From NCBI GenBank assembly GCA_016179105.1, contig JACOSB010000120.1:489-64488 (forward strand): a stretch of DNA of 64,000 bases. The letters are read 5' to 3'. Positions 12,533-53,928 of this stretch are shown piece by piece. The notes under the pieces are model-generated. The model saw only the letters and a list, made by a program, of their open reading frames with translations. It was not told the DNA's origin and did no database searches. A program made the translations under genes and the position numbers. Numbering within the stretch: position 1 is the first letter of the stretch; the number at the start of each line of letters is the position of its first letter. The DNA comes from Candidatus Acetothermia bacterium. Its GTDB lineage: Bacteria > Bipolaricaulota > Bipolaricaulia > RBG-16-55-9 > DRXL01.

Positions 12533-12551
12533 GCTCGATTACAGTTAGGCC

Positions 12552-12779: not shown

Positions 12780-12805
12780 ACATTCGGAACTTAAAGGAGC
12801 CGGTG

Positions 12806-14326: not shown

Positions 14327-14344
14327 GCGTATTCACTAAAACTC

Positions 14345-14364
14345 CCCGCTTTACTGAAAGCGGG
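14345..14364 (+). terminator. perfect 8-bp stem hairpin (cccgcttt-actg-aaagcggg) between fibre genes, possible attenuator/processing site
   Basis: Seen directly in the sequence. There is no U-tract, so probably not a strong intrinsic terminator. Confidence 0.25.
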
Positions 14365-14383
14365 CAATTCCTAAGGAGGAATC

Positions 14384-15163: not shown

Positions 15164-15221
15164 GCACACGGGTGAGCGTTGTGTCGAAAATAATACTTTA
15201 CTAGACGATAAGGAGGTCGCC

Positions 15222-17038: not shown

Positions 17039-17065
17039 TGTGAATGGCTTCGGGGCTTGGTGGGA

Positions 17066-17518: not shown

Positions 17519-17751
17519 CGGCGGCGGTCCTCGCGCAGCAAGTGGACGCTGTCGCTGAAGGTGCGGCCGGAGCGGGTGAGCTTGCGGCGGAGTCGGCGGG
17601 TGCCGGCGAGCGCCTCGTGGGCCGAATGTTTTACGGAATCTTCCAAGATCGCTCTCAACTCTTGTTGGAGCGAGCGATGCTGTCGGATGGCACGTTCTTT
17701 GAGAGTCTTCAGCACCTTGTCGGGTACATCACGTATTAAGATATTGGGCAC
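17515..17751 (-). CDS. vapB: VapB-type antitoxin (ribbon-helix-helix/FitA-like), probable GTG start
   Basis: N-terminus (M)PNILIRDVPDKVLKTLKERAIRQHRSLQQELRAIL is a typical RHH antitoxin. AAAGGA RBS sits 8 nt upstream of the GTG. The longer ATG-initiated ORF (to 17808) is also possible. Confidence 0.6.
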   Translation of the reverse strand: MPNILIRDVPDKVLKTLKERAIRQHRSLQQELRAILEDSVKHSAHEALAGTRRLRRKLTRSGRTFSDSVHLLREDRRR

Positions 17752-17769
17752 AGTAGGATTCCTTTCTGA

Positions 17770-17786
17770 TGCTATCACAATGATAG
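17770..17786. promoter_or_regulatory. perfect inverted repeat GCTATCA-caa-TGATAGC immediately upstream of vapB, candidate autoregulatory operator
   Basis: Seen directly in the sequence. TA operons are typically autorepressed via palindromes at the promoter. Confidence 0.4.
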
Positions 17787-17806
17787 CAAAGGCTTCTATG
17801 GGGAGC

Positions 17807-17913
17807 AAAGAACCAATCCATCGCCAGCGGAGTTTATCTGTATCGACTCACCCCGCGCGATCGAGACGGCAATGAAACTCAGAGCGAGCTACGCAAGCTC
17901 ATCATCTTAAAGT
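17807..17913 (+). pseudogene. 3' remnant (last ~35 codons) of a beta-helix/Ig-like paralog of gene 12806..14326, truncated by the vapBC insertion
   Basis: Nucleotide and protein match to 14208..14326. Remnant KNQSIASGVYLYRLTPRDRDGNETQSELRKLIILK* versus KDQSVAKGVYLYRLTARDRDGNEIHSELRKLIIENFFE*. Confidence 0.6.
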
Positions 17914-17932
17914 AAACCAAAGGAGGTACACC

Positions 17933-21894: not shown

Positions 21895-21920
21895 CTCAAA
21901 GTGAGAAACAGGAGGAAACA

Positions 21921-23804: not shown

Positions 23805-23870
23805 GTGAGGCTTCAGAGAACAAGAGCTGAGATGAGAAGGGCCGGGCAGCGTTCGCTTGGCCCTGTTTGC

Positions 23871-23898
23871 GTAGGGGCGAGGCATGCCTCGCCCCTAC
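23871..23898. repeat. GTAGGGGCGAGG-catg-CCTCGCCCCTAC palindromic element (bidirectional terminator-like) between convergent genes
   Basis: Perfect 12-bp stem hairpin; member of the family also at 10564, 31571, 32798, 40419 and 51377. Confidence 0.6.
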
Positions 23899-23906
23899 GG
23901 GACCAA

Positions 23907-26900
23907 TCATTCTGTGCTCGTGTCTAACGCATACTCGATCGCCTGCTCGAGCGTCAGTGATTGACCTTGGGTCCAGGCAGCTGCAAAAACTTTCTCCTCA
24001 AGCTTCTCACGGATTGTAGCTACAGTGCGATCAAAAGCAGCGCGATTGGTCGGCGGCAAAGAAGCACGCATGGCCCCGCGCAGAGCCGCGACGGCTCCGC
24101 AAAGATGAGCAGCGCGCACAAGCTGACCTTGGGCGAGCGAAACCACTCCCGTCCCTTCGAGTAAGAACGCGATGTTCCATTTATCTCGCAACTCCCGTTG
24201 CAAGAGTAGTCCCTCTTCATAGAGCGCATGAGCGGATGCATAATCACTTTGTTTTAGGGCAACACTGCCCAGATTATTGAGAGAGTTGGCGAGGCCCGGC
24301 TTGTCTCCTAGCTCACGACGTAAAGCCAGACTTTTTTCATAGAGCGTTCGCGCTGTTTGGTAGTCCCCTTGATTCTCTGCTACACTCCCCAAGTTGTTGA
24401 ACAAATAAGAGATGGCTTGTTTGTTCCCCAACTTTGTGTTGATCTCGAGGCTCTCTTCATAGAATGCTTTGGCTTGCGTATACTCACCCTGGGCTCGCGC
24501 GATGAGCCCTAAATTGTTGAGCAAGATAGCAATGCCGGCGGCGTCTCCTAATTTACGAGAGAGATTCAAGCCCTCCTCAGAGAGGGAGCGCGCCCGTGTA
24601 TACTCACCCTGCTTCCAGGCGATCGACCCCAAATTCTGAAGAGTTTTTGCCATGTCTCTCTCGCCTCCCAGACCTCGAAAGATCGCTAGACTTTCTTCGT
24701 GATAAGAACGTGCTGTGAGATAATCTCCTTGTCCTTCAGCCAGAGTGCCGGCCGCGTTGAGCGCCTTGGCACTCGTGATAGTCCTCTTGAGACTCCCGGC
24801 CTGTGCAAGGACAGAAGCCACTTGTGATCGCCCTTCTGTGAGATAGCCGCGAACAAGCCAGAAAGCACTGAGTGCGGTTACCATGCGCAACCCAGCTTCC
24901 GTTTTTCTTCTATCTTTGGCATATTCGAGTGCACTGCGCAGATTGTCTTGCTCTTGCTCCAATCGCTCCAGCCAGCTGGATTGAGCGGGCCCCTGCAGTT
25001 CGGACTCTGCTTTTTCTGCCAGAGCAAGGAACCAATCAAGATGGCGCTCGCGCAAGACCGATTCTTCTTTGGAATCAAGAAGTTTCTCCCGACCGAACTG
25101 GCGCACGGTCTCTAGCAGGCGATACCGTGTCTCTCCGTCTCGCTGATCCACAAGCACTAGCGACTTGTCTATGAGGTGAGTCAGTAAATCCAAAATTTCT
25201 GTAAGGGCGATTCGTGAATCGCCCTTACGAAGATCATCTCTTGCACAGATCGTCTCTACGGCCTCCAACGTAAACCCGCCCGCGAAGATAGACAACCTGC
25301 GCAGCAATGTTTGCTCAGCGGATGAGAGCAGATCGTAGCTCCAGTCCATCGCAGCCTGTAGAGTTTGTTGTCGCGGAAGCGCCGTCCGGCTGCCGCTCGT
25401 GAGCAACCGGAAGCGATCGTCCAGCCGCGCCGCGATCTCTGTGACAGACAAAACTTTCACGCGTGCCGCCGCGAGCTCGATGGCCAAGGGCAAGCCATCC
25501 AGCTTCTGGCAGATCTGCATCACCGCAGGGGCATTTTGTAGGTTCAATCCAAATTCCGGTTGACTAGAGAGTGCCCGCTCGACGAATAAGCTTATAGCTT
25601 CGTATTGTTTTAAAATCTTCAAAGGCAAGGAATCGTGAGCGTCGGGCTGCACGAGCGGAGGCACTTGCCAAACCGTCTCTCCTGCGATGCCCAGCGCCTC
25701 ACGGCTCGTGGCCAAGACCTGAAGATCTGGGCAGGTGTGCAATAGAGTCTCTGTCATGTGCGCACAGGCACTGATCAAGTGCTCACAATTGTCTAGAACC
25801 AGGAGCATTTGTTTGGATTTTAGATAGTCTGAGAGTGCGTCTGTCAACGAACATTGCTGTGTCTCGCGCACTCCCAAGGCAGACGCGATGGCTTGCGGGA
25901 CGAGCTTTGGGTCGGAGATGGATGCCAATTCTACCCACCAGACTCCATCCGAGTAGTCTTTCACCATACTTGCGGAAACTTGCAACGCGAGGCGTGTCTT
26001 GCCGCTGCCCCCGGCTCCAGTGAGAGTAAGTAATCTCGTCGTGTTGAGTAACCATTTCACTTTGACAATCTCGCGCTCGCGCCCGATGAAGCTGGTCACA
26101 GAGCTGGGCAGATTGTGCCGTGCCGGACTCGCGGGCGGCGGGTAGCCTTGGCTGGAACGCTCTCCACGCACAATCTGCTCGTGCAATGTGCACGTCTCGG
26201 GCGACGGTTTTGCACTCAAGTGCTCTTCCATTACTTTGGCACACTCGGCATAAACTTGCAGTGCTTCGCTGTGCTGCCCTGCGAGCGAGTGATAGAGCAT
26301 CTGCTGGCGATAGACGCTCTCGCGTGTGAGCTCTTGTTTCAAGATTTTTCCGCATTGTTCGAGTGCTTGTGGATACTGCCCCAGACGCGCATGGCATTCG
26401 GCGCATTGCGAAAGCGCGGTCAGATAGAGCTCTCGCCAATGTTGACGCGGGCTGAGCGTCCACTCTTCATAAAGGTCTTCGGCCAAGAAATCACCCTGAT
26501 AGAGATCGAGAGCTTGGCGATATGTGTCCAATGCTTCCGGCCAGCGCCCGGCTCGTTCTGAGGCTTGGGCAGTCTCCATCTTCTTTTGGAATTCTTCGGT
26601 GTCGAGCCAACAGGAAGAATCTTTGCTAAAAGAATATCCACCCTGGCGCTTACTCACGATGTAGTGTGAGTCCAAGCTCTTGTCAAGATTAGGCTCTAAT
26701 GCGTGGCGCAGTTCTCCGATGCGTCCGTAGAGATTCTTCGCGGCTTTCGCGGGCTCAAGGTCGGGAAAGAGTGCTTCGATCAGTTGGTCCGGGCTGAAGA
26801 TTTTTCCCCGGTCGGTGAGCAGGATTTTCAAGAGCGACAACGTCTTGTGGCGCCCCCAGGCTTGGGCAGGGACGAGCGCATCCTCACGCCAGACTTCAAA

Positions 26901-26978
26901 GCGACCAAACAGCTTGACCCGGAGTCCTTTGGTGCTCGTCCCGCTCATGAGATACTCCCATCGCCCTGCTGCGCTCAT
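23907..26978 (-). CDS. AfsR/SARP-family STAND transcriptional regulator (wHTH + BTAD + NB-ARC ATPase + TPR array), paralog B
   Basis: Collinear with paralog A at about 45-50% identity. Walker A LTGAGGSGKTRLALQV. At least 8 C-terminal TPR repeats (QGEYxxA...EESLxI...LGN). Divergent from fibre genes 27089 onward. Confidence 0.8.
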   Translation of the reverse strand: MSAAGRWEYLMSGTSTKGLRVKLFGRFEVWREDALVPAQAWGRHKTLSLLKILLTDRGKIFSPDQLIEALFPDLEPAKAAKNLYGRIGELRHALEPNLDKSLDSHYIVSKRQGGYSFSKDSSCWLDTEEFQKKMETAQASERAGRWPEALDTYRQALDLYQGDFLAEDLYEEWTLSPRQHWRELYLTALSQCAECHARLGQYPQALEQCGKILKQELTRESVYRQQMLYHSLAGQHSEALQVYAECAKVMEEHLSAKPSPETCTLHEQIVRGERSSQGYPPPASPARHNLPSSVTSFIGREREIVKVKWLLNTTRLLTLTGAGGSGKTRLALQVSASMVKDYSDGVWWVELASISDPKLVPQAIASALGVRETQQCSLTDALSDYLKSKQMLLVLDNCEHLISACAHMTETLLHTCPDLQVLATSREALGIAGETVWQVPPLVQPDAHDSLPLKILKQYEAISLFVERALSSQPEFGLNLQNAPAVMQICQKLDGLPLAIELAAARVKVLSVTEIAARLDDRFRLLTSGSRTALPRQQTLQAAMDWSYDLLSSAEQTLLRRLSIFAGGFTLEAVETICARDDLRKGDSRIALTEILDLLTHLIDKSLVLVDQRDGETRYRLLETVRQFGREKLLDSKEESVLRERHLDWFLALAEKAESELQGPAQSSWLERLEQEQDNLRSALEYAKDRRKTEAGLRMVTALSAFWLVRGYLTEGRSQVASVLAQAGSLKRTITSAKALNAAGTLAEGQGDYLTARSYHEESLAIFRGLGGERDMAKTLQNLGSIAWKQGEYTRARSLSEEGLNLSRKLGDAAGIAILLNNLGLIARAQGEYTQAKAFYEESLEINTKLGNKQAISYLFNNLGSVAENQGDYQTARTLYEKSLALRRELGDKPGLANSLNNLGSVALKQSDYASAHALYEEGLLLQRELRDKWNIAFLLEGTGVVSLAQGQLVRAAHLCGAVAALRGAMRASLPPTNRAAFDRTVATIREKLEEKVFAAAWTQGQSLTLEQAIEYALDTSTE

Positions 26979-27088
26979 TATACGCCAGTTTGCTCGAAAT
27001 CGCCGCCATCCGGAAGAAGGGTGTGACCTAACTGTAACCTTCTTCTTCTATGCTCAATGCAATGGAGAAATCCCAAGGAGGGATCAAG

Positions 27089-29227
27089 ATGAACGTCAAG
27101 AATTCACTGAAGCTCTTGGTCGTCCTGTCGCTGTTAGCTTTCTCAACAGCGGTGGCAGCTCAACCGGTGTCGTCGTTCCACGTGTTTGTGGAAAAACAAG
27201 CTTCCAATTATTTCTTCTCAGTGCAGGGAGAGAACGTCGCGTCCACACGAGTGGAGGTTTTGGGTCTAAACGGTAGGCCGATCTTTGATAGCGGATGGAT
27301 ACTGGGGCAGACGGTGGCTTGGCCGCTGATGACTCTTAATGGGCAACCTGCCGCCAATGGAGTCTATCTCTATGCAATCAGCGTAAGAGATCAGCAGGGT
27401 AAGGAACAGCGCAAGCTGGGCAAACTGGCAATCGTGCAGGGGCTGAAGCTGTTGTTGAGCACGCCTGACGTGGACGATCTGGTTCAGGTCCAGCCGATGG
27501 CTTCGGGGGCGCAATGGAAAGAGCGTCTGGCAAAGGATGGACAAGATAATTTTCGGATTCTGCGCAATGGTGCTGCGCTACTGACCCTGGACAGTAGCAG
27601 CCGACTGACGGTGGCTCAGCTTTGCTTGGCGGGAGATTGTCGCAACGTCTGGCCCGCAGGCGGAGGTCCCACTCTCGCCTGGTTGCTCAGCGGCAACGCG
27701 GGTACCACGGCAGGCACGAACTTTTTGGGAACTACGGACAATGTCGCTCTGGAACTGAAAGTGAACAGCCAGCGCGCGCTGCGCATTGAGCCTGGTTCGA
27801 CACCCAATCTCATCGAAGGCTTTAGCGGCAACTTTGCTGGCGCGGGCGTAGTCGGCGCCGCTATCGGCGGCGGCGGAGCCAACGGCACCAATAATCGAGT
27901 GCTCGACGATTTTAGTACGATCGGCGGGGGATTGAATAACCAGGCGGGTGATGGCAATGGATCCACAGCAGACCACGAGTTGGCGACCGTCGGCGGAGGA
28001 GCAGGCAACCAAGCCACCGGTAATAATTCTACCGTGGGTGGAGGTCTAGGGAACACTGCCAGCGGTGGTTTCTCCACGATTCCCGGGGGGATGTTCAACA
28101 CAGCCTTGGGTGATTTCAGCTTTGCCGCAGGCCGACGTGCCAAGGCTAACAATCAGGGCAGCTTCGTCTGGGCTGATAATTCAGTCGATGCTGACTTCGC
28201 TTCCACAGCAGACAATCAGTTCCTTATTCGCGCGAGTAAAGTCGGCATCGGCACGACGACGCCTGGGTATAAATTGGACGTCAACGGGGTCGGGCGCTTC
28301 CAGGGCTTAGAGGGCGGAGCGTCCAGCGGCGCAGGAGTAGAGATCCAGTATGGCAATGTGGGTGGAGCAACCCGCGGTATCGTCTTTGCGTTTGACCGGT
28401 CGGCAGGAGCTCCCCGAGATTTGCTCTTAAACCACCCCGGCGGCAATGTCGGCATTGGCACGACCAGCCCCAGTGCCGGGCTAACTGTCCGTGACGTAAA
28501 TCCCAGCGCCTTGAACTTTGTCTTTCGAATAGAAGACTCGACTGGGGCTCAACTATTCGCGGTCGACGACATCGGACGCGCAGGGACGAAAAGCGGCTTC
28601 ACCGTTGGTGCCTTCGCGCCAGCCACGACTACTCACGTTTGTCGCACCACCGCTCCGCCAAGCGGCCCGGGCATATTGGCCGAGTGTTCATCGGCAGCAG
28701 AGTATGTCCCCACTGTGGAAGATAGCAATGGATATCCCGAAACCGGAGATCTGGTGCGCGTTCTGCCCTCAGTCAAAAATCCCTTCGGAGATAAACACTC
28801 ACCTTTCGTCGTAACCAAGACCAGCAAGCCGTGCGATAGCGATCTATTGGGTTTCTTGCTCAAGCCCGAGCTGGGAGCAGATGGTCCGAAGTTGAACGAA
28901 CACTATCGGCCGCTCGCGATCTTCGGCTACTTTCCCGCCAAAGTGACTATGGAGAACGGGACTATTAAGCGAGGCGATCCGATCACGTCGAGCTCTAAGC
29001 CCGGCTACGGCATGAAAGCGACCCAAGCGTGCAAGATCATCGGTTATGCGCTCGAAGATGCAGATAGAGAAGGAACGATTCAGATCTTCGCGCACTTGAG
29101 CGAGAGTGCAGCGCCGGAAGTGACGGCGCTCCGAGCGCAAGTGCAAGAGCTGCACCAACAATTGCAACAAGTACTGAGCCAGTTGGATGCGATCAAAGCC
29201 AAGGTAGGGTCAACACCGATAAAGTAA
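27089..29227 (+). CDS. secreted fibre-family protein, type III N-terminal Ig-like domain, YadA-head/Hep_Hag-like Gly-rich repeats, family-A C-terminal domain and coiled coil
   Basis: RBS aaggaggg 6 nt before the ATG at 27089 (the ORF could also start at 27050). Signal peptide MNVKNSLKLLVVLSLLAFSTAVAA. Its C-terminus is near-identical at nucleotide level to those of genes 15222..17038 and 17933..19756. Confidence 0.75.
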   Translation: MNVKNSLKLLVVLSLLAFSTAVAAQPVSSFHVFVEKQASNYFFSVQGENVASTRVEVLGLNGRPIFDSGWILGQTVAWPLMTLNGQPAANGVYLYAISVRDQQGKEQRKLGKLAIVQGLKLLLSTPDVDDLVQVQPMASGAQWKERLAKDGQDNFRILRNGAALLTLDSSSRLTVAQLCLAGDCRNVWPAGGGPTLAWLLSGNAGTTAGTNFLGTTDNVALELKVNSQRALRIEPGSTPNLIEGFSGNFAGAGVVGAAIGGGGANGTNNRVLDDFSTIGGGLNNQAGDGNGSTADHELATVGGGAGNQATGNNSTVGGGLGNTASGGFSTIPGGMFNTALGDFSFAAGRRAKANNQGSFVWADNSVDADFASTADNQFLIRASKVGIGTTTPGYKLDVNGVGRFQGLEGGASSGAGVEIQYGNVGGATRGIVFAFDRSAGAPRDLLLNHPGGNVGIGTTSPSAGLTVRDVNPSALNFVFRIEDSTGAQLFAVDDIGRAGTKSGFTVGAFAPATTTHVCRTTAPPSGPGILAECSSAAEYVPTVEDSNGYPETGDLVRVLPSVKNPFGDKHSPFVVTKTSKPCDSDLLGFLLKPELGADGPKLNEHYRPLAIFGYFPAKVTMENGTIKRGDPITSSSKPGYGMKATQACKIIGYALEDADREGTIQIFAHLSESAAPEVTALRAQVQELHQQLQQVLSQLDAIKAKVGSTPIK

Positions 29228-29377
29228 ACTGGAATGAAAGCAAAAAACTCACTGGGCCGGGCAAGCTCTGCTCGGCTCCTGTGATTTTCTGGTAGCTGGG
29301 TGCTGGAGCAGCTAACCTGAAGTCGAGCGATCGAGTTGGAACCAAGCGATTGGGGAAATCCCAAAGGAGGGGTCAAG

Positions 29378-31540
29378 ATGAAAGTCAAGAATTCACTCAA
29401 GTTGTGGGTCGTCCTGTCGCTGTTAGCCGTTTCGACAGCAGTGGCCGCAGGACAAGCGTCGTCGTTCCAAGTGCTCGTGGAGGAGCAAGCTTCCAGTTAC
29501 CTCTTCTCGGTACAAGGAGAGAATGTCACCTCCACGCGATTGGAGATTTTGGGCTTAAACGGTAGGCCGATCTTCGACAGCGGATGGATACTGGGGCAGA
29601 CGGTGGCATGGCCGCTGGTGACTCCGACTGGACGACCCGCCGCCAATGGAGTTTATCTCTATGCGATCGGCGTGCGAGATCAGAAGGGCAAAGAAGAGCG
29701 CAAACTGAGCAAACTGGCAATTTTTCATGAGCTACAAGCCTCACTGAGCGTTCCGAGCATAGGCGAAATATCTCAAATTGGGCCATCGGCTCTCCCGGCT
29801 GGAGTGAAGTGGCAAGAGAAGTTGGGCAAAGATAGCGTAGACAATTTTCGGATTCAGCGCCGCCCAGGCAACGGGCAGCCTTTCCAAGACTTGCTGATCC
29901 TAGACAATGCCAGTCGACTGACAGTAGCTCAGATCTGTCTGGCCGGCGACTGCCGCAACGTCTGGCCGGGAGGTGGAGGACCCACTCTGGCCTGGTTGCT
30001 CACCGGCAATGCGGGTACTACAGCGGGCACCAACTTCTTGGGCACAACCGATAACCAGCCGCTTGAGATGCGCGTGAACAACCAGCGGGCGCTGCGCATT
30101 GAGCCGAATGCGACGAGCCCCAACTGGATCGGGGGCTTCAGCGGTAACTCTGTCCGCGCGGGCGTGGCCGGTGCCACAATCGGCGGTGGCGGAAGCGGAG
30201 ATGTTGGAAGAATAAATAAAGTTTTAGAGGAATTTGGCACGGTGAGCGGAGGCTTTGACAATACAGCTGGCGCTGCCTGGGCCACCGTGGGCGGGGGCGC
30301 TGGCAACACCGCCAGCGGCACTCAGGCCACGGTGGGCGGAGGCTTTAGCAACACAGCCAGCGCTCTCGCTCTCTCGGCCACAGTGGGCGGGGGAGGGTTC
30401 AACACAGTCAGCAACGGGTATGCCACCGTGGGCGGAGGCTTCACTAACACCGCCGGCGGCCAGTTTGCCACGGTGGGCGGGGGCAAGAACAATACAGCCC
30501 CCGAGACCAGTTCCACAGTAGGTGGTGGGTTCGGCAACGGGGCAACCGGCCTAGACTCTATAGTGGGCGGAGGCAACCAAAACACGGCGGGCGCTTCTTG
30601 GGCCACCGTGGGCGGGGGCAAGATCAACACGGCTCTTGGCATCAGTTCCACTGTAGGCGGCGGCTTCTCCAATGCGGCCAGCGGCCTTGATTCCACAGTG
30701 CCCGGAGGCCACCAAAACTTCGCCCAGGGGAATTACAGTTTTGCTGCAGGGTTTAGAGCCAAAGCTAACGATCAAGGTGCTTTCGTCTGGGCCGATTCCA
30801 CCGACGCGGATTTCACCTCTACCGCGGCCAATCAGTTCAGTGTACGCGCGAACGGTGGTGCCCGCTTCATCACTCAGCTTTCTACTCCTACCTTTACTTT
30901 AGCGGCTCTCCAGGTGGAGACCGGCGCCACTGGCGGTGAAGCCGCCTGGTTGCGCATAACGAGTTCGGCCAATCCCCAACCGGTCATCAAGCTGCTCAAG
31001 CATCCGAGCGGTACCAATAACTTCCTAGAATGCAGTAATTTCGACAGCACCACCGAGACCACCAAGTGTCATATCAATAAAGATGGTGCCTTCGTGGCGG
31101 GCTCCGACTTTGCCGAATCGCTCCCAGCCAAAGACGGTAAAGCGAACTATGAGCCAGGAGATGTGCTCGTCCTCAGTGTAGATCGACCGGGAGCAGTCCA
31201 GAAGTCAAACCAGCCTTACGATCCAAGAGTGGCGGGCGTCTATTCGACACGGCCTGCGGTGCTGGGTGCCGAAAAGGGCGGAGGAGAGACGCGAGTGGAC
31301 CCTAACGAAATCCCGGTGGCCATCGTGGGGATCGTGCCCGTGAAGGTGACGGCCGAGAATGGAGAGATTCAGCCCGGCGACTTGCTGACAACGTCTAGCG
31401 TGCCCGGCTATGCCATGAAAGCGAAAGCGGTCGTAGTCAATGGGATTGCGATCTATCCCACGGGAACGATCCTGGGGAAGGCTGTGGAGCCGCTGAAAAG
31501 CGGGGCGGGTGTCATCAAAGTGTTGGTGATGCTGCGCTAG
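29378..31540 (+). CDS. secreted fibre-family protein, type III N-terminal Ig-like domain, >12 tandem ATVGGGFxNTAxG (Hep_Hag-like) repeats, family-B C-terminal domain
   Basis: RBS aaaggagggg. The signal peptide and N-terminal 220 aa are about 80% identical to gene 27089..29227. The C-terminal domain is paralogous to that of gene 19753..21894. Confidence 0.75.
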   Translation: MKVKNSLKLWVVLSLLAVSTAVAAGQASSFQVLVEEQASSYLFSVQGENVTSTRLEILGLNGRPIFDSGWILGQTVAWPLVTPTGRPAANGVYLYAIGVRDQKGKEERKLSKLAIFHELQASLSVPSIGEISQIGPSALPAGVKWQEKLGKDSVDNFRIQRRPGNGQPFQDLLILDNASRLTVAQICLAGDCRNVWPGGGGPTLAWLLTGNAGTTAGTNFLGTTDNQPLEMRVNNQRALRIEPNATSPNWIGGFSGNSVRAGVAGATIGGGGSGDVGRINKVLEEFGTVSGGFDNTAGAAWATVGGGAGNTASGTQATVGGGFSNTASALALSATVGGGGFNTVSNGYATVGGGFTNTAGGQFATVGGGKNNTAPETSSTVGGGFGNGATGLDSIVGGGNQNTAGASWATVGGGKINTALGISSTVGGGFSNAASGLDSTVPGGHQNFAQGNYSFAAGFRAKANDQGAFVWADSTDADFTSTAANQFSVRANGGARFITQLSTPTFTLAALQVETGATGGEAAWLRITSSANPQPVIKLLKHPSGTNNFLECSNFDSTTETTKCHINKDGAFVAGSDFAESLPAKDGKANYEPGDVLVLSVDRPGAVQKSNQPYDPRVAGVYSTRPAVLGAEKGGGETRVDPNEIPVAIVGIVPVKVTAENGEIQPGDLLTTSSVPGYAMKAKAVVVNGIAIYPTGTILGKAVEPLKSGAGVIKVLVMLR

Positions 31541-44820: not shown

Positions 44821-45183
44821 ATGCGTGTCGTGTTGTGTGCACTGTTGGTGATCGTGGCGATTGTGTGTGTCAATGTCGATAGCTGGGCCGTTTCCATTAG
44901 ACCCGAAGAAGTGAAATGCCGCCTGAAGGGAGACCCGTTGTTGTTCGGAGCGGCTTCTTTCTTTGTGCCGGGATTGGGACAATTCTTCAATGGCCAAGAT
45001 GGCAAAGGAATCACCCATCTCGTCGTGGCGATCATCCTGCCGGCGGCAGTGGCCTACATTGCCTACATACTTGTGCCGATTTCCCCGTTGGCTTTTGCCG
45101 CTCCCTCCTTGATCTATCTGGTATGGGCGCTGTATAGCGCCCTCGATGCCTATAACATAGCGGCAGAGTATTGCAAGGCTTGA
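44821..45183 (+). CDS. small membrane protein (2-3 TM), unknown function
   Basis: RBS ggaggagg. Hydrophobic segments. The stop overlaps the left copy of a 36-bp direct repeat. Confidence 0.4.
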   Translation: MRVVLCALLVIVAIVCVNVDSWAVSIRPEEVKCRLKGDPLLFGAASFFVPGLGQFFNGQDGKGITHLVVAIILPAAVAYIAYILVPISPLAFAAPSLIYLVWALYSALDAYNIAAEYCKA

Positions 45184-45208
45184 GCTCCGACACCGTGTCG
45201 ATCCAGAG
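45173..45208. repeat. 36-bp imperfect direct repeat, copy 1 (gcaaggcttgagctccgacaccgtgtcgatccagag), partner at 47835..47870
   Basis: 33 of 36 nt identical to copy 2, which lies inside the ABC permease gene 3' region. Confidence 0.6.
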
Positions 45209-45313
45209 TTTGAGAATGGTGCTGGCCTTGCCGATCTTGTAGAGGGCAGCGGTGATCTCTTCGTCATCTCGCCAGACCCGGAAGGGACCGAGCAATTGAA
45301 TGCGTAAGCTCAC
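45209..45313 (-). pseudogene. N-terminal fragment (~35 codons) of a SARP-family regulator fused to repeat-derived sequence
   Basis: MSLRIQLLGPFRVWRDDEEITAALYKIGKASTILK aligns with MGLDIRLLGPFRVLHDNQDITNEIRQIGKADVILK of gene 46721..47635. It then reads into LWIDTVSELKPC, encoded by the 36-bp repeat, which in copy 2 is permease coding sequence. Confidence 0.45.
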
Positions 45314-45363
45314 TTTTGGAATTGTAAGGGGGGAGAATTCGCTGAGAGCAAGTCAGGCTTCAC

Positions 45364-45714
45364 TTAGATGAATTTGCGCTGGTTCATGATTTCTTCCGCA
45401 GTAAAGCGATCTAAGAATTCTAAAACCTTTTTGAGCAAAGGGCGAAATTCAGGCGTACTTGTCAGAACGATTCCATAATGCTCTTTGCTTTCACTGAGCC
45501 AGCGCTCATGGAGTTTGGCAAAGTCGGCAACATTGTGTGAGAAAATGGCCATCTTATGTTGGACAGCGTATTCTAGCTGTTCTTCGTCTTCCACTCCTTT
45601 GCGTTCCGTTTCTCTGGCAGTCGCAGCATCATAACCGTAGCGACGCAAAGCGGGGCCTAGTTTGTTGTCGACATTCTCGTCTATGAAGAGTGCGATGAAG
45701 AGCCGTTCCGCCAA
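45364..45714 (-). CDS. DUF5615 family protein (PIN-like putative toxin)
   Basis: 116 aa. Overlaps the upstream DUF433 gene by 34 nt. The DUF433-DUF5615 pairing is a recurrent putative TA arrangement. Confidence 0.6.
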   Translation of the reverse strand: MAERLFIALFIDENVDNKLGPALRRYGYDAATARETERKGVEDEEQLEYAVQHKMAIFSHNVADFAKLHERWLSESKEHYGIVLTSTPEFRPLLKKVLEFLDRFTAEEIMNQRKFI

Positions 45715-45962
45715 CGCTCCTCCGAGTTCTCTTCGAGGTCTTGGGTGATTTCTTCAATATGGTCAAACGCATAGCCGATGGCGTCCAAAATTTGGGATGG
45801 AGTTAGATGGCTATAAGCGCTTTGAATTTCTTCGATGGTCTCTCCGCCACGATAGCGCTTGAAGATCAACCAGATTGGGATGCGTGTGCCGACAATTACG
45901 GCCCTGCCCCCACAGACGCCCTTGCGCTTTTCCACATAAGGGTGTTTGATTTTTACAGCCAT
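45681..45962 (-). CDS. DUF433 family protein (putative antitoxin / HTH-like)
   Basis: VCGGRAVIVGTRIPIWLIFKRYRGGETIEEIQSAYSHLTPSQILDAIGYA is the characteristic DUF433 core. Confidence 0.65.
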   Translation of the reverse strand: MAVKIKHPYVEKRKGVCGGRAVIVGTRIPIWLIFKRYRGGETIEEIQSAYSHLTPSQILDAIGYAFDHIEEITQDLEENSEERWRNGSSSHSS

Positions 45963-46184
45963 GACAGACCACCAATCTCATGATGAGAGAAACGAGATCA
46001 TACGTAACCAGTCTAGCGATTTTGATTCACTATTGTCAATCGCCGGATTAAAAGCCGTTGTATGAGAGAGAAAGATAGTGTCATCCGATCCGTAAAGTCG
46101 GCGCAAATCTCAGCGCAAAATAACGAGCTTCTTGACCTCGCTCTTGACAATTGTACTGTCCTCACGGCTTACATAGTAGAGCTA

Positions 46185-46718
46185 TCATGGACAGCCTGAG
46201 CCTTGAGTCACGGTCTGAGTCACGGTATTGCTGGAAATACCGGTCGTATCATCGACAACCCAGAGTTGAGAAGTGCCTACAGGTGTAGCACAGGTGCTGG
46301 TGAAGTCCCAACTGATATTGCCATTACTGTCGGCACTGATTGCTGGAGTCAAGATGATCTCTTGGCCGTTAGGCTTCAGCAGGTGTCGAGTTACAGTTCG
46401 GTTGGGAGTGAAGCCGCTACCGTTGGTGCGGAAGGTCGTACCCTGAGAACCTGCACTCGGGGTGATGGTGATTAAGGGGGCACAACCTGGTCCAAGAGTG
46501 ACTGTCTCAGTGATGACATTACTCTGTAGGTTCTTGCCCACATCGAGAGTCCAGACTTGATAGGTGCCAGGTTGTCCTAAAGGATCGTCGCATGGAGGAG
46601 AATAGTCCCAACTGATGTTGCCGTTGGGGTCAGCGGTGATGGCTGGGATCTCTTGCGGATTCTTGCCAGACGGTTGAACGAAGCGACGGACACTCCCGTT
46701 GGAGGTAAACTTGTTTCC
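46185..46718 (-). pseudogene. start-less ORF encoding two tandem ~85-aa Ig-like repeats (NGNISWD...C...G..QxW..D....N.VT.TVT.G.GC), probable gene remnant
   Basis: A continuous reading frame runs from directly after the stop of gene 46721..47635 to 46185. There is no ATG/GTG near the 5' end and no signal peptide. The ORF-track 46185..46541 covers only its second half. Confidence 0.3.
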
Positions 46719-46720
46719 TG

Positions 46721-47635
46721 TTAATGGGCTCGCTGTAGCGCGTCCATGAGCTGGGCATACTCGTGCTTTCGACCCACAAACGGGACGCTCCCCGGCGAGA
46801 GCGCGTATGGAAACTCTATCGCTTGTGAGGACGGAGGGGGTCGGTCTACTTCAGGCACGTGGCCTGCTCGAATCTGTTCGTACAATTGCTTGATCTCGGG
46901 CGTAGGATCTGTTGCCAGCTCTTCCTTGAGCATCTTCACGCACTGCTCATAGGTGCGCGGCGCCTCGGCCTGATCCCCCGCAAGATAGTAGTACAGCATG
47001 AGCTGGCGATGGGTACTCTCTCGGAATTTTTCAAGCCGCAAGACATGACGATAGCATTCAATCGCGCGCCGGTACTGCCCTGAATGAACGTAGCAGTTTG
47101 CTAATTGTTTCAACAGATCGAGATGGGTCTCTTGCCATTTCTCGCGTACTGGGATGGCCCATTCTTCGGTGCGATCTTCGATCAAGTACTCTCCATCATG
47201 AGCTGAGCGGAGCGCGGTTTCGTAAGCATCAATGGCGGGAGAGATTTGTCCTTGATTCTGTAATTTTCGAGCCCGCTCATAATGCTGAAGGTATTCTTGG
47301 AAGTCGATCCTGCATTCGACCTTGGAGTTCCAGTAATAGCCCTGAGGTCTCTTGAGGAGAATGTAACGAGATTGGCCAAATTTTTTGAGCGAGGGCTCCA
47401 AGATCTTACGAAGCTTGCTGATGCGTTTGTAAAGATTCCCTTTTGCTTTTTTGAGATCAGTATGATGGTTCCAGAGAGCGTCGATGAGGTCTTCTATGCC
47501 AACAATTTGACCAGGCTGATTGAGTAATAGCTTCAGGATGACATCTGCTTTGCCGATCTGACGGATTTCATTTGTAATATCTTGATTGTCGTGCAGGACT
47601 CGGAAAGGTCCCAGCAGTCGAATATCCAAACCCAT
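46721..47635 (-). CDS. truncated SARP-family regulator (wHTH + BTAD only; NB-ARC/TPR portion absent)
   Basis: 304 aa collinear with the N-terminal ~300 aa of regulators A and B (LLGPFRV..., DTEEF.., YLAGDQAEA...). Ends at ...FVGRKHEYAQLMDALQRAH*, just before where the Walker A would follow. Confidence 0.65.
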   Translation of the reverse strand: MGLDIRLLGPFRVLHDNQDITNEIRQIGKADVILKLLLNQPGQIVGIEDLIDALWNHHTDLKKAKGNLYKRISKLRKILEPSLKKFGQSRYILLKRPQGYYWNSKVECRIDFQEYLQHYERARKLQNQGQISPAIDAYETALRSAHDGEYLIEDRTEEWAIPVREKWQETHLDLLKQLANCYVHSGQYRRAIECYRHVLRLEKFRESTHRQLMLYYYLAGDQAEAPRTYEQCVKMLKEELATDPTPEIKQLYEQIRAGHVPEVDRPPPSSQAIEFPYALSPGSVPFVGRKHEYAQLMDALQRAH

Positions 47636-47716
47636 CCCGCACTCTCCCCAAAGAAGTTTCTGTCATTGTAACGGGGAGAGTGCGGCAAAGACAAGTTGGA
47701 TTGTATAAATTGCAAG

Positions 47717-48670
47717 TTATTCTCTTCGGTACGGTTGCCCGCTCTGCTTGGGGAAGCGCGCGTGCCCGATCGCAACTGCCACGACCGCAAGCGTCGCGAT
47801 GTACGGGAGCATCTTCACAAAGTTATGGAAGGCAAAGGGCAAGCACGGCTTGAGCTCCGAGACCGTGTCGATCCAAAGCGCGAGCGTGTCGAAGACGCCA
47901 AAGAGAAAGCCACCCAAGAGCGCGAGCAACGGATTCAATCCACTAAAAACGACGTTCGCGAGCGCGATGAAGCCGCGCCCCGCTGAGAGCTCTTTGGTGA
48001 TTGTGCTCAGCCAGTCAATACTGAGATATGCTCCCCCAAGTCCCGCGAGCGAGGCGCCGTAGATCACCGCGAAGAAGCGTGTGCGCTCTACAGAAATTCC
48101 GGCCACATCCGTCGCTTCCGGGTTCTCGCCCACAGCTTTGACGCGTAACCCCAGCACGGTCTTGTTCAATAAGAACCAAGTCAAGATCGCGATCAGAATC
48201 GTCGCCGGGATGAGCGGGCTGAGATCGCCTAAGGGCGTCTGCAGGGCCGGCACGCGCGCGGCCGGCGGCGCTTGGTGATAGCCCGCTGACTTCCAGACCG
48301 CCATGATGCCAAACGCGACGAACCCCAACGCAAAGAGATTGATCCCAATCCCGCTGATGACTTGGTCGCCTTTGAGCGGGATTGCGATCAGACCATGAAT
48401 CCAGCCGATGAGCGCCCCCGTGCCCAGGCCCGCCAGAAGGCCGATCCAGGGACTAGACGTCACTTCCGCGGCCCACAACGACGTGAACGCACTGATAAGT
48501 AGAATGCCTTCGAGGCCAATGTTGACGATGCCAGATTTTTCACTGAAAACTTCGCCGACGCTGGTCAGCGTGATCGGGACCATCGCGATGAGCGCCAGCC
48601 TCAGCAAGTCCGGCGCGGAGTTCCATAAGAGCGACAAGAATCCGACGAAATTGACAGTACACTCTTGCAT
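47717..48670 (-). CDS. BMP-family (nucleoside/simple-sugar type) ABC transporter permease, second permease
   Basis: The start was trimmed to the internal Met (MQECTVNFVGFLSLLW...) that lies 5 nt after the stop of the upstream permease. The 145-aa Arg-rich N-terminal extension in the ORF track is spurious. Confidence 0.7.
   Translation of the reverse strand: MQECTVNFVGFLSLLWNSAPDLLRLALIAMVPITLTSVGEVFSEKSGIVNIGLEGILLISAFTSLWAAEVTSSPWIGLLAGLGTGALIGWIHGLIAIPLKGDQVISGIGINLFALGFVAFGIMAVWKSAGYHQAPPAARVPALQTPLGDLSPLIPATILIAILTWFLLNKTVLGLRVKAVGENPEATDVAGISVERTRFFAVIYGASLAGLGGAYLSIDWLSTITKELSAGRGFIALANVVFSGLNPLLALLGGFLFGVFDTLALWIDTVSELKPCLPFAFHNFVKMLPYIATLAVVAVAIGHARFPKQSGQPYRRE
47835..47870. repeat. 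36-bp imperfect direct repeat, copy 2 (gcacggcttgagctccgagaccgtgtcgatccaaag)
   Basis: Lies inside the permease CDS and encodes LWIDTVSELKPC on the minus strand. Confidence 0.6.
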
Positions 48671-48675
48671 GGCGT

Positions 48676-49806
48676 TCAACCTCGCTTGCGCCGGAAAATC
48701 TTGAAAATACTCAATAATTCGGGAATCGCGAGCGTCAGGATGATCGCGCCCTGCACGACGCGCACCATCTCCAAGGGCACTTGAGCGGCGATCTGCATCT
48801 GGTTCGAGCCGGCGGAGAGCCCGCCCATGAAGATCGCGGCCACGATCGCGCCCAACGGATGGTTGCGCCCGATGAGCGCGACCGCGATTCCGTCGAACCC
48901 CAAATTCATCACGTTCGAGAGGTCTTCGTAGAGCGCATAGGTCGGCGGCCGACCCAGGATCTGCGTCGCTCCGGCTAGTCCCGCCGCAAGACCTCCGAGC
49001 ACGAACGACGCGATCATCGTGCGGGTCGGTCGTATCCCGCCGTAGCGTGACGCATCGGGGTTGAGCCCGACCGCGCGAATCTCGTAACCCAAGGCCGTCT
49101 GCCACAGAATCCAGTAAATAATTCCCGCGAAGAGCACGCTAACCAGAAGCGAAGCCGTCAGGTCCATTCCCGGCAGGATGGGAAGGAGCCGTGCGCTCTG
49201 AGCGATGCTGATCGACTTCTCGGCACGGTTGGGGTCGACGAGCGCCGTCGCGATCAGATAGTAGGCCAGATAGCGCCCGACCCAGTTCAACATGATGGTT
49301 GAGATAACTTCGTGTACGCCGCGGGTCGCTTTCAACAGGGCGACGGGAAGACTCCAGAGCGCGCCAGCGATCAGTGCGAAGAGAATTGAAACAAGAACAT
49401 GCAAGCCCGGCGGGAGAGAGAAGAGACTGGCTGCGACCGCGGCCATGGCCCCAATATAGACTTGGCCCTCGGCTCCGATATTAAATAGCCCAGCCCGGAT
49501 GCCGATGGCAAACGTGAGCCCGGTTAAAATCAAGGGAGTCGCGTTGGTCAGAGTGTTGGTCAGCTCGTAGAGGCCATATATGACCCCCGTCTCTTTGCAA
49601 GCATCGATGCCTTGTGAGAGTAAACATGAGAGGGCTTTCCCTATCGAGCCGAAATCTCCGAAGGCGCCTTGAAAGAGAGCAAGGTATGCTTTTACAGGGT
49701 CATACTTCCACAAGAGCATGAGAACAGCGCCGATTCCGAAACCCAAGAGCGCCGCGAAAAGCCCTTCGACCAAGGGCTTAAACCAGCCCCAGAGCTTGGT
49801 CCTCAT
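48676..49806 (-). CDS. BMP-family ABC transporter permease, first permease
   Basis: 376 aa, 8-10 TM. Overlaps the ATPase gene stop by 4 nt. Confidence 0.75.
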   Translation of the reverse strand: MRTKLWGWFKPLVEGLFAALLGFGIGAVLMLLWKYDPVKAYLALFQGAFGDFGSIGKALSCLLSQGIDACKETGVIYGLYELTNTLTNATPLILTGLTFAIGIRAGLFNIGAEGQVYIGAMAAVAASLFSLPPGLHVLVSILFALIAGALWSLPVALLKATRGVHEVISTIMLNWVGRYLAYYLIATALVDPNRAEKSISIAQSARLLPILPGMDLTASLLVSVLFAGIIYWILWQTALGYEIRAVGLNPDASRYGGIRPTRTMIASFVLGGLAAGLAGATQILGRPPTYALYEDLSNVMNLGFDGIAVALIGRNHPLGAIVAAIFMGGLSAGSNQMQIAAQVPLEMVRVVQGAIILTLAIPELLSIFKIFRRKRG

Positions 49807-51421: not shown

Positions 51422-52603
51422 TTAGAAATTCTTGCGACACGCCTCGATCGCGTCCTTGTCCTGAGCGAGAGGAACCTTGACCTCGCCGCTCTTGATCTTG
51501 GTCTCCAGCTCTGCTGCAATGGCAAAGACGGAGGCAGGAACAGAGGCACGCATCGCGCGGACTTTGGCGACGATCTTGTCCTTGTCCTCGGCCTTGACCG
51601 TGCCGGCCTTGATGCCCAGTTGCAGGAAGGTATCGAGATCCTCGACGGTGCTCAACCTGACGCCGCCCTCATTCAGACCCAACTCCAGAATGCCGCCCTT
51701 GAAGGTGCCTTCTTTGGCTTGCTTAGCAGCCGTGAAGACGCCCGTGTCGACACGCTTCATCATGCTGGCCAGAATGAAGCCGGGCTTGATGTAGTCTTGG
51801 TCGGCGTCGACGCCAATCGCGAACGGCGGGCCCTGGTCCTTGCCAGCGGCCTTGCCGCGCGCCTCAACAGCCTCAAAGATGCCCAAGCCCGTCGCACCCG
51901 CGACGTTGTAGACCAAGATCGCACCCTGGTTTAACATAATTTCCGTGGCAGTCTTGCCCTTGGCCGGGTCGCCGAAGGAACCAGTATAGTTAGACAAAAC
52001 TTTCACGGCATCTTTGTTCGTCTTCAATTTTTGAGTCAGCGCGTAGTTAACGCCAAAACGATACCCGCACTCGAACTTCCACAAAACGGGGATCTCGATG
52101 CCGAGCACAACACCGATAGAAGACGCTTTCAATTCGGTCGCAAGCACTGCACCGAGTGCGCCGACAAGCGCGCTACCCTCTTGCTCCTTGAAAAGCACGC
52201 TCAGGACGTTCTTCTTGTCCGGGATGAAGCCGTCGATAATCGCGAAGTTTTGGTTCGGGGATTCAGTCGAGACCGCGACCATCGCGTCCGTGAGCAAGAA
52301 GCCCACGCCGACGACTACCGTGCAGGTTCCGGTGCGGGCGAGCGTGCGCAGGTTCGGGAGATAATCCTGCTCAGTCTTGCTCTGGACTTCCACGAGCTTT
52401 GTCGCATGACCGGCCTTGACGGCGTTGTCTCCGCCGAGGGCAGCCATGTCGTTGAACGAGAGATCGCCGCGTCCACCTACATCGTAGACGATACAGAGAT
52501 CTGTCTTTTGCTGCGCCGTTAGTGTATTTTCATTCAGCGAGACAATTCCCAGGAACCCAAATAAAGCAACGCTTAGTAAAAAAACCTTGGCCAGGGTGTT
52601 CAT
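51422..52603 (-). CDS. BMP-family (Med/TmpC/PnrA-like) ABC substrate-binding protein
   Basis: Signal peptide. IVYDVGGRGDLSFNDMAALG and YNVAGATGLGIFEA motifs typical of basic membrane protein binding proteins. Confidence 0.8.
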   Translation of the reverse strand: MNTLAKVFLLSVALFGFLGIVSLNENTLTAQQKTDLCIVYDVGGRGDLSFNDMAALGGDNAVKAGHATKLVEVQSKTEQDYLPNLRTLARTGTCTVVVGVGFLLTDAMVAVSTESPNQNFAIIDGFIPDKKNVLSVLFKEQEGSALVGALGAVLATELKASSIGVVLGIEIPVLWKFECGYRFGVNYALTQKLKTNKDAVKVLSNYTGSFGDPAKGKTATEIMLNQGAILVYNVAGATGLGIFEAVEARGKAAGKDQGPPFAIGVDADQDYIKPGFILASMMKRVDTGVFTAAKQAKEGTFKGGILELGLNEGGVRLSTVEDLDTFLQLGIKAGTVKAEDKDKIVAKVRAMRASVPASVFAIAAELETKIKSGEVKVPLAQDKDAIEACRKNF

Positions 52604-52725: not shown

Positions 52726-53928
52726 CTATTTATCCAATTCCGCACGCCATTTTTTCAAGTCGTCTTGCGTCGTGACTTTCGGCACTTGCACTTTCCCAGA
52801 ACGAATCAATTGCTCCAGTACGCTGACTGCGGCCCAGATATAGGTCGGGAGACTATCGCGCATCGCTTTGACTTTTTTCACGATCGCGTCGTGCTGGTCG
52901 GCTTTCACTGCGCCGGCTTTGATGCCAAGTTGTAGGAAAGTCTCGAGGTCTTCGAGTCGGCTCATCGAAACGCCATTCTCTTTAAGACCGAGCTCCAAGG
53001 TTCCCCCCCGAAAGCTGCCTTCTTTGGCGAGCTTCGCGGCGGTGAAGACGCCCTGATCGACACGCTTGATCATACTGGCAATGATGAAACCGGGTTTTAA
53101 GTAATCTTGGTCGGCGTCGACGCCGATGCCAAACGGCGGCCCCAGCTCTTTGCCGGCGGATTTGCCCTTGGCTTCTGCAGCTTCGAAGATTCCAAGTCCC
53201 GTCGCGCCCGCGACGTTATACACAGCAATCGCTCCTTGGTTGAGCTGGACTTCGGTCGCGTTCTTGCCGCGAGCGGGATCGTTGAACGAGCCCGTATACG
53301 TCCAGAGCACTTTGGCGCCCGCGAGTTGGGGATTACCGAGCGCGGCGCGCAGGACATCACGGGCCCAGCGCACGCCCCACTTGTAGCCGATCTCAAACTT
53401 CCACAAAACGGGGATCTCCAGGCCCAGAATGACTCCGACGGCGGAAGCTTTGTTCTCCATCGCAATCAAGCCAGCCAACGCGCCGACGAGCGCGCTGCCC
53501 TCATTCTCCTTGAAGAGCACACTCAGCACGTTCTTTTTGGTGTCGAGAAAGCCATCGACGATCGCGTAGTTTTGTTTGGGGAATTCATCGGCGACCGCTT
53601 TCGCAGCATCGGTCAGCAAGAAGCCGACGGCGACGATTAAGATACAATCGCCGGCACGGGAGAGCGACCTTAAGTTCGGCAAATAGTCGGACTCGGATTT
53701 GCTCTGGGCTTCGACCACTTGGGCAGCGATGCCGGCCTTCACGACTGATTCGCCGCCCAAAGCCGCCATGTCGTTGAACGAGAGATCGCCGCGCCCGCCG
53801 ATGTCATAGACGATGCACATCTTGTTCTTTGTGGATTGGGCGACACTAGAATTTTCGGTGAAGGTGATGCCTACGCTATATAGCAGAACCAGCGAGCTGA
53901 CGAGCGCGAGCTTTAGACTATGGCGCAT
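52726..53928 (-). CDS. BMP-family ABC substrate-binding protein, tandem paralog
   Basis: About 60% identical to 51422..52603 (IVYDIGGRGDLSFNDMAALG...). Confidence 0.8.
   Translation of the reverse strand: MRHSLKLALVSSLVLLYSVGITFTENSSVAQSTKNKMCIVYDIGGRGDLSFNDMAALGGESVVKAGIAAQVVEAQSKSESDYLPNLRSLSRAGDCILIVAVGFLLTDAAKAVADEFPKQNYAIVDGFLDTKKNVLSVLFKENEGSALVGALAGLIAMENKASAVGVILGLEIPVLWKFEIGYKWGVRWARDVLRAALGNPQLAGAKVLWTYTGSFNDPARGKNATEVQLNQGAIAVYNVAGATGLGIFEAAEAKGKSAGKELGPPFGIGVDADQDYLKPGFIIASMIKRVDQGVFTAAKLAKEGSFRGGTLELGLKENGVSMSRLEDLETFLQLGIKAGAVKADQHDAIVKKVKAMRDSLPTYIWAAVSVLEQLIRSGKVQVPKVTTQDDLKKWRAELDK

Follow-up and report, generated by a model that had tools for sequence, protein, structure and literature searches.

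The locus described here lies in a 64,000-nt stretch of DNA (hereafter, the window, in whose positions all coordinates are given) from the metagenome-assembled genome (MAG) of a Candidatus Acetothermia bacterium of the Bipolaricaulota (GCA_016179105.1, contig JACOSB010000120.1), and it centres on a 36-nt direct repeat. The right copy of the repeat (47843–47878, minus strand) constitutes codons 265–276 of perm2 (47717–48670, minus strand), an intact gene for a 317-aa permease (Pfam BPD_transp_2) and the second permease gene of an ABC transporter operon with the order substrate-binding protein (SBP), SBP, ATPase, perm1, and perm2. The left copy (45173–45208) stands between p120 (44821–45183, plus strand), a convergent gene for a conserved small membrane protein of 120 aa, and a 35-codon stump (S_L; 45209–45313, minus strand) resembling the N-terminus of a SARP-type regulator. 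Between the copies lie the upstream region of S_L, a predicted toxin-antitoxin pair, a fragment of a repeat-domain gene, and a SARP gene for a protein of 304 aa (S_R; 46721–47635), all on the minus strand.

The left copy, GCAAGGCTTGAGCTCCGACACCGTGTCGATCCAGAG, and the right copy, which encodes the peptide LWIDTVSELKPC in a variable loop of the permease, were identical at 33 of 36 positions in the repeat search and in local alignment, and they lie 2,670 nt apart on the same strand; 100 dinucleotide-preserving shuffles yielded no repeat match. The initial annotation had reported this repeat with the same identity and had placed the right copy at 47835–47870, which is off by 8 nt; its description of that copy as permease coding sequence about 200 bp from the start of S_R was accurate, the distance being 208 nt. 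All three mismatches fall on synonymous third positions in the perm2 frame. The 36-mer occurs twice in the window, no homology was detected by local alignment beyond the 36 nt on either side, and the only other diagonals in the self-comparison came from the SARP N-terminus and its upstream region. Searches allowing up to seven mismatches in 2.0 Mb of fetched loci retrieved no copies beyond the same two sites in contigs of the same population, and a codon-degenerate pattern of the right copy had no match in the JGI metagenome contigs. As far as these data reach, a dispersed short repeat resembling a repetitive extragenic palindrome (REP) or a miniature inverted-repeat transposable element (MITE), which the initial annotation had named as the finding that would speak against its view, is excluded. 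A 13-nt palindrome inside the left copy, CGACACCGTGTCG, was checked as a possible binding site and has no other occurrence in the window.

Two sibling MAG contigs, L084 (GCA_016196055.1) and L085 (GCA_016201315.1), are 99.4–99.9% identical to the window and contain both copies of the repeat, and Logan contigs from two sequencing runs cover p120, the left copy, and part of the stump. The repeat junctions thus recur in independent assemblies, from NCBI (two MAG contigs) and from Logan (two runs), and are no assembly artefact of this contig. Two of the Logan contigs (L082 and L083, from two runs) stop at 45278 and a third (L001) begins at 45257; the assembly graph branches within this part of the stump (45257–45278), which may reflect strain variation or k-mers common to another SARP gene of the community.

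For comparison with related genomes, loci were collected by scanning with perm2. Among the GTDB species representatives, none of the 80 loci was syntenic downstream of the permease gene, and the nearest by perm2 (L059, 82%) has a convergent MFS gene directly after it. A JGI metagenome contig from a related lineage (L086) was reached through the perm2 scan and synteny. Its ABC operon upstream of perm2, including both tandem SBP genes, is syntenic with that of the window and the operon is conserved; its perm2 orthologue is identical at 87% of amino acid and 76% of nucleotide positions. The nucleotide identity is evenly distributed over the gene, the part of the protein beyond the right copy agrees in 37 of 41 residues, and the orthologue reads LWLDTVHELKPC at the codons of the repeat. 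Because of this orthology and the conserved tail, the right copy is native to perm2. A foreign 3' end of perm2 starting at the repeat was considered and rejected, as there is no break in identity with L086.

Downstream of perm2 the L086 contig carries, after a 59-nt spacer, an intact gene for a 1216-aa SARP starting MSLRIQLLGPFRLWRDEEEITSALHKIGKADTILK, and it thereby supplied the ancestral arrangement that the initial annotation had hoped to obtain from related genomes. The stump S_L (peptide MSLRIQLLGPFRVWRDDEEITAALYKIGKASTILK; 35 codons, or 36 with CTC) was recognised by its similarity to the N-terminus of this protein, with which it shares 30 of 35 residues and 86 of 105 nt (82%). This divergence is about that of the flanking perm2, as is expected of an orthologue. 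The corresponding part of S_R agrees with the L086 SARP at 20 of 35 residues and 65 of 105 nt, and with S_L at 20 of 35 residues and 62 of 105 nt; in tblastn against the window this last match had E = 2e-9, a significant alignment that bears out the SARP-like nature of the fragment proposed in the initial annotation. The in-frame fusion of the left copy to the 35 SARP-like codons, within the mechanical open reading frame (ORF) 45032–45313, was likewise found as described there. Upstream of the stump, a kept region of 50 nt (45314–45363, minus strand), which adjoins the stop codon of the DUF5615 gene, was aligned with the intergenic region of L086 and the region upstream of S_R. It contains a -10-like TTACAAT (45321–45327), and a GTG start follows 6–7 nt after TTACAAT in both S_L and the L086 SARP gene. 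Because S_L is closer to the L086 SARP than S_R is and shares this TTACAAT-GTG layout, the sequences identify it as the stump of the ancestral resident regulator adjacent to perm2 and not as a copy of S_R. Decay of a ribosome-binding site was rejected as the cause of the 22 nt missing upstream of S_L, as the intact L086 gene has the same short layout. The GC content at third codon positions (GC3) of S_L is 0.71, like that of the native genes. A close full-length relative of the 47-aa peptide formed by S_L and the left copy was absent from 5.8 billion proteins, and no SARP or permease debris was found elsewhere in 45200–46800 using the L086 proteins as queries.

The left copy can be resolved into three parts by comparison with its neighbours. 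At the S_L side, L086 reads AAA CTC TTG, the window AAA CTC T/GG ATC (the slash marks the junction), and perm2 GCG CTT TGG ATC; on this alignment S_L is native through CTCT (45205–45208, minus strand), that is, codon 36 and one further base, and the base responsible for the C/T mismatch at this end belongs to S_L itself. On the opposite side, the last codons and the stop codon of p120 (...GAG TAT TGC AAG GCT TGA) run into the left copy, with TGC AAG GCT TGA inside it, and GCAAGGCTTGA at the p120 end (45173–45183) matches GCACGGCTTGA of perm2 at 10 of 11 nt. The p120 family, an unannotated one of membrane proteins of about 120–130 aa, comprised 94 representatives at E ≤ 1e-3. In the best alignments, the homologues reach residue 119 of 120 and end one or two residues later, and the C-termini of the family (EYCKP, QYCSL, EYCRGS, and EYCTK; EYCKA in the window) follow a pattern of EYC or QYC, one to three residues, and a stop codon. 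On the simplest reading, GCAAGGCTTGA is probably p120's own end, which would account for a second mismatch between the copies, and p120 itself is, judged by its family, intact. With both ends of the repeat made up of native flanking-gene sequence, only about 22 nt need have been copied from perm2, namely the core of the left copy (approximately 45184–45204), which is identical to perm2 at 21 of 22 positions and has the one remaining mismatch. With this anatomy, the repeat need not bracket a duplicated or mobile 2.7-kb unit, and the initial annotation over-interpreted it in this respect.

From the anatomy of the left copy, the orthology of the stump, and the positions of the junctions, we infer with moderate confidence that the repeat is a functionless rearrangement scar, in which a deletion of S_L was joined by a short perm2-templated patch in a single step. 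In the ancestral state, as in L086, perm2 would have been followed by a full-length regulator with the architecture wHTH-BTAD-NB-ARC-TPR, of which S_L is the remainder. A deletion would have extended from codon 37 of this gene as far as the p120 stop codon, and the ends would have been joined via a patch copied from the same strand of perm2, then situated about 290 nt or else 2.6 kb upstream. Mechanistically, template switching or end joining guided by microhomology is likely. Pairing of the broken or stalled S_L end (...AAA CTC T) with the CTT T of perm2 would have preceded the copying of about 22 nt, after which the new end would have paired with the p120 terminus through the match of GCAAGGCTTGA to GCACGGCTTGA. 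Template microhomology would be present at both junctions, as CT(C/T)T at the first, with L086 as the proxy for the lost S_L sequence, and as 10 of 11 nt at the second, with the p120-family C-termini as the proxy. Separately, a second and divergent SARP unit, S_R, would have come to lie between perm2 and the stump, truncated ahead of its ATPase domain and joined to the fragment of a repeat-domain gene, followed by the DUF433/PIN toxin-antitoxin pair. The decayed surroundings, in which S_R and the repeat-domain gene are truncated and the siblings differ by indels, favour this history. Several points weigh against it. The nativeness of GCAAGGCTTGA rests on protein family patterns from homologues of about 50% identity and not on the DNA of a close orthologue, and a microhomology of 10 of 11 nt is long for such an event. 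The three synonymous differences between the copies could mean that the left copy came from a slightly diverged permease copy, an idea that loses force because the flanks explain two of the three. No intermediate genome was found that would show the one-step patch or the order of events.

An origin in two steps, which would lead to the same topology, would begin with a tandem duplication, or with the Campbell-type re-integration of a circle, extending from the repeat site in perm2 to S_L codon 36, which would create the joint between S_L and the left copy; a later deletion up to the p120 stop codon would remove the rest of the second copy from 25–36 nt past that joint. At a duplication joint, a permuted order such as that of S_L followed by the left copy is to be expected, and the ancestral distance from the repeat site in perm2 down to S_L codon 36 was about 290 nt. 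The apparent microhomology at both joints fits illegitimate recombination equally well, and indels are demonstrably frequent in the block. However, two independent events are needed, the second ending just 25–36 nt from the first joint, and no second copy of the sequence from the repeat site to S_L (perm2 tail, intergenic region, and S_R), such as a duplication joint should have beside it, was found beyond the 36 nt. We regard this course as a tentative possibility. The initial annotation had also proposed a duplication followed by deletion or replacement; it was right in seeing rearrangement debris of this class, but S_L, with its 30 of 35 residues shared with L086, is an ancestral remnant and not a duplicate of S_R. 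The restriction of the three differences to synonymous third positions, as expected under purifying selection, could also be explained if the left copy were the relic of a second, slightly diverged permease (a paralogue or an acquired piece) once located downstream of S_L and since reduced to 36 nt by deletions on both sides. However, the native flanks explain two of the three differences, and three sites provide weak statistics (the chance that all would be third positions is about 1/27). Beside the left copy there is no further permease-like remnant, nor does a second permease follow the SARP in L086; such a relic is improbable.

The arrangement also recalls the attL and attR repeats of an island (S_R, the repeat fragment, and the toxin-antitoxin pair) integrated site-specifically in the 3' part of perm2, since the direct repeats flank a 2.63-kb block with a GC3 of 0.50–0.57, compared with 0.70–0.75 in the flanking transporter genes, and a toxin-antitoxin pair is typical island cargo. 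Against this, the main ORFs of the block contain no recombinase-type Pfam family; the perm2 tail after the repeat is orthologous to that of L086 (37 of 41 aa) and hence not borne by an island; and the left copy is followed by the antisense of the p120 end, which has no similarity to the perm2 tail, leaving no displaced tail. The distal end of the block is the native S_L stump with its promoter, which is ancestral chromosome and not cargo, and the 36-mer occurs nowhere else in the 2.0 Mb of fetched loci or the JGI scan. Judging from these sequences, site-specific integration is effectively excluded. The suggestion in the initial annotation that the toxin-antitoxin segment mediated the event found no support either, as nothing links the two and the Pfam scan of the main ORFs contained no recombinase-type family. 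Finally, the patch could have been kept by selection if the S_L promoter drove a leaderless chimeric micro-ORF (45032–45313) or an antisense RNA over the 3' half of p120. The layout of the promoter-like TTACAAT and the GTG start is that of the intact L086 gene, the frame is open for 93 codons, and its sequence is identical in the three sibling assemblies. However, the siblings are 99.4–99.9% identical overall, so their identity here is uninformative on selection; the 58 codons after the patch are merely antisense to the conserved gene p120; and no homologue of the chimera was found among the 5.8 billion proteins. We consider a function of this kind very unlikely, and there is no indication of function for either the repeat or the chimeric ORF.

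S_R was assigned by Pfam an OmpR-type winged helix-turn-helix (Trans_reg_C, E = 2.1e-8, residues 33–101) and a BTAD domain (E = 6.8e-26, residues 110–256, full model covered). The protein ends in ...FVGRKHEYAQLMDALQRAH, before the GxGGSGKT P-loop of two paralogues in the window (A and B, each about 1000 aa) and of the L086 SARP, and it contains neither NB-ARC/NOD nor TPR. Its last stretch, FVGRKHEYAQL..., is the linker leading to the NB-ARC P-loop in A and B; the alignment with the two paralogues and with the L086 SARP (49% identity over residues 1–306 for the latter) extends up to FVGR-x-x-E and then stops. The stop codon stands exactly where the unrelated repeat-domain frame takes over. Because it ends at the linker preceding the P-loop and is terminated at the fusion with a truncated unrelated gene, S_R is, to judge from its sequence, a large SARP from which the ATPase and TPR parts were removed by fusion or deletion, and not a native small SARP. 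It is a divergent paralogue or xenologue of S_L. The initial annotation had correctly called it a truncated wHTH-BTAD-only paralogue, and its count of at least four SARP-type copies in 64 kb also stands, with four located: paralogues A (9127–12312) and B (23907–26978), which have the full wHTH-BTAD-NB-ARC-TPR architecture, S_R (46721–47635), and S_L (45209–45313).

The region upstream of S_R (47636–47716, minus strand) contains a promoter-like TTGTCT-18-TACAAT (47694–47665), detected by promoter scan and alignment. With this site, the Shine-Dalgarno sequence, and the open frame all intact, S_R could be expressed. The same region holds a perfect 13-bp inverted repeat (47637–47649 and 47673–47685; RNA fold of -31.9 kcal/mol, z = -4.1) that covers S_R's -10-like box and Shine-Dalgarno sequence, and its 3' arm lies within the 22-nt segment absent from the S_L upstream region and from L086. 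Its appearance suggests a template switch of the quasipalindrome type with an inverted templated insertion; alternatively, it may be a terminator or attenuator of perm2. In the sibling L084, S_R has a 192-nt in-frame deletion (window 47172–47361; L084 2295–2296) that takes out 64 codons, reaching from the last part of the wHTH into the first part of the BTAD domain, and leaves a 240-aa product; the edges of the deletion have a 2-nt microhomology (CA/AC). Because a sibling carries this internal deletion, S_R can be argued to be dispensable. Among the sibling MAGs, S_R has only one single-nucleotide polymorphism (SNP), which is uninformative on the balance of synonymous and nonsynonymous change. 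The initial annotation had raised the idea that S_R acts as a dominant-negative regulator, which is not favoured by the analogy with AfsR, whose SARP domain is active when freed of NOD and TPR (PMC10936776); by this analogy S_R, if expressed, would more likely be signal-blind and active. As the promoter, the Shine-Dalgarno sequence, the wHTH, and BTAD are kept and the inhibitory NOD and TPR parts are lost, S_R could be constitutive; that it activates constitutively, or competes with the other large SARPs of the genome for their boxes, and has functionally replaced the deleted resident regulator beside the transporter operon is improbable.

The predicted type II toxin-antitoxin pair (45364–45962, minus strand), with a promoter-like site at 46039–46010, consists of a predicted DUF433 antitoxin (45681–45962; Pfam E = 2.2e-17) and a predicted DUF5615/PIN_10-like toxin (45364–45714; DUF5615 E = 2.7e-14 and PIN_10 E = 8.9e-5). 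The DUF433 gene precedes the toxin gene, which is the order of the family, and shares 34 nt with it; the DUF433-PIN pairing has been described (PMC2701414 and PMC5499597), and the presence of the pair between the repeats had been noted in the initial annotation. Between the pair and S_R lies the 5'-truncated fragment (46185–46720, minus strand), composed of two tandem repeats of about 100 aa with a period of 300 nt. The first repeat is cut at its 5' end, and the first possible start codon (46541) lies inside it. The initial annotation was therefore right in describing a start-less repeat ORF, but its assignment to Ig domains was not sustained, as no Pfam match and no homologue other than the fragment itself in the protein database were found, and the single-sequence AlphaFold model was all-beta with a predicted local distance difference test score (pLDDT) of 55, by which an Ig-like fold is not established. 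No paralogues of the fragment or of the toxin-antitoxin pair were found in the window or in all fetched loci. In L085, about 195 extra nt (window 46438–46531; L085 3350–3636) form an additional repeat unit of about 72% identity with frameshifts on both sides; either the fragment appears to be a pseudogene of variable structure, or else the assembly is unstable there.

The Pfam scan of the main ORFs in 45209–47842 returned only DUF433, DUF5615/PIN_10, Trans_reg_C, BTAD/TPR, or nothing, and no recombinase-type family. The GC3 was 0.50–0.57 for the toxin-antitoxin pair and the intervening block as a whole and 0.55 for S_R, compared with 0.70–0.75 for the transporter genes. This low GC3 would fit a foreign origin or decay, and it is only suggestive because paralogues A and B have a GC3 of 0.59. 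The siblings L084 and L085 differ by indels in the block, and the block is thus structurally unstable in the population and decaying.

The transporter operon is of the nucleoside/sugar type (BMP-type ABC). The tandem SBP paralogues at its head (window 51422–52603 and 52726–53928; L086 923–3422) are each closer to the positional counterpart in the other contig (82–83%) than to the neighbour (58–65%), and the SBP duplication is therefore old and retained. The mechanical ORF of 462 aa at 47717–49105 over-extends perm2 through an upstream GTG; the gene in fact begins at the ATG at 48670, in agreement with the calls in three assemblies and with L086. The SNPs that separate the window from the sibling MAGs are concentrated at 49459–49738 in the 5' part of perm1 (7–12 within about 300 nt, nearly all synonymous), possibly as a recombination tract; the 2.7-kb debris block has almost none. 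The p120 gene, recognised by its ORF and family alignment, has no assigned Pfam family (best, TM2 at E = 0.86), and its family is marked by the motif GLGQF(x)NGxDGKG, by an N-terminus that is signal-like, and by conservation of DAY-x4-EYC at the C-terminal end. At least eight ORFs of the window (approximately 14000–30000; for example, 14105–14308, 18038–18292, 27182–27439, and 29471–29725) share a C-terminal domain of about 90 aa, at 30–46% identity, with three secreted-looking L086 proteins encoded downstream of the SARP gene (11063–16686). The domain resembles a C-terminal sorting or anchor domain family.

Templated insertions at microhomology-mediated junctions are described as a general phenomenon in PMC5120786, PMC7954356, and PMC12426944. 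The scar resembles such templated filler insertions (template switching, of the microhomology-mediated break-induced replication or fork stalling and template switching type, and microhomology-mediated end joining) in having a short, nearby copy in the same orientation exactly at a deletion joint and, judged from the proxies for the lost sequence, short imperfect homologies of the template with both flanks. It differs in the unusual length of one flank homology (10 of 11 nt), and whereas most documented cases are eukaryotic or experimental, the present one comes from sequence comparison in an uncultured Bipolaricaulota MAG. Among known regulators, paralogues A and B and the L086 gene fully match the large SARPs, or AfsR-type STAND regulators (wHTH, BTAD, NB-ARC/NOD, and TPR); S_R shares the wHTH and BTAD domains without NOD and TPR, and S_L matches the extreme N-terminus as a stump of 35–36 codons. 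The host here is a member of Candidatus Acetothermia/Bipolaricaulota and not an actinomycete, and neither a target promoter nor a direct-repeat box was identified. S_R is like the small SARPs of the ActII-ORF4, DnrI, and RedD type in its two-domain content and its similar length of 304 aa, but differs from them in ending in the FVGR... linker that precedes the ATPase domain in its relatives. The two small overlapping genes, DUF433 first and PIN-like second, would correspond to the DUF433 (COG2442)-PIN_10/Mut7-C-like, VapBC45-like pairs. With the att-site repeats that flank islands, the locus has in common two direct copies, one in the 3' part of a gene, and a block of lower GC3 with a toxin-antitoxin pair; it differs in having no recombinase, a native gene tail, no displaced tail on the far side, and ancestral chromosome within the block.

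For annotation, the ORF at 45032–45313 should not be called a gene, and those at 46721–47635 and 46185–46720 should be treated as truncated remnants. The parts belong to known families and the event to a known mutation class, and the repeat is an ordinary genomic scar with little import beyond annotation. As a natural example from an uncultured bacterium, it would combine a deletion joint, a short templated patch, and imperfect microhomologies at a locus in which indels bounded by microhomology still distinguish the sibling genomes, and it may be useful for surveys of template-switch mutations in MAGs. For the organism, the finding means that this Acetothermia/Bipolaricaulota population has lost a STAND-type regulator that its relative keeps beside the ABC transporter operon; if S_R were a working, signal-blind regulator, the scar would record a regulator swap and not mere decay.

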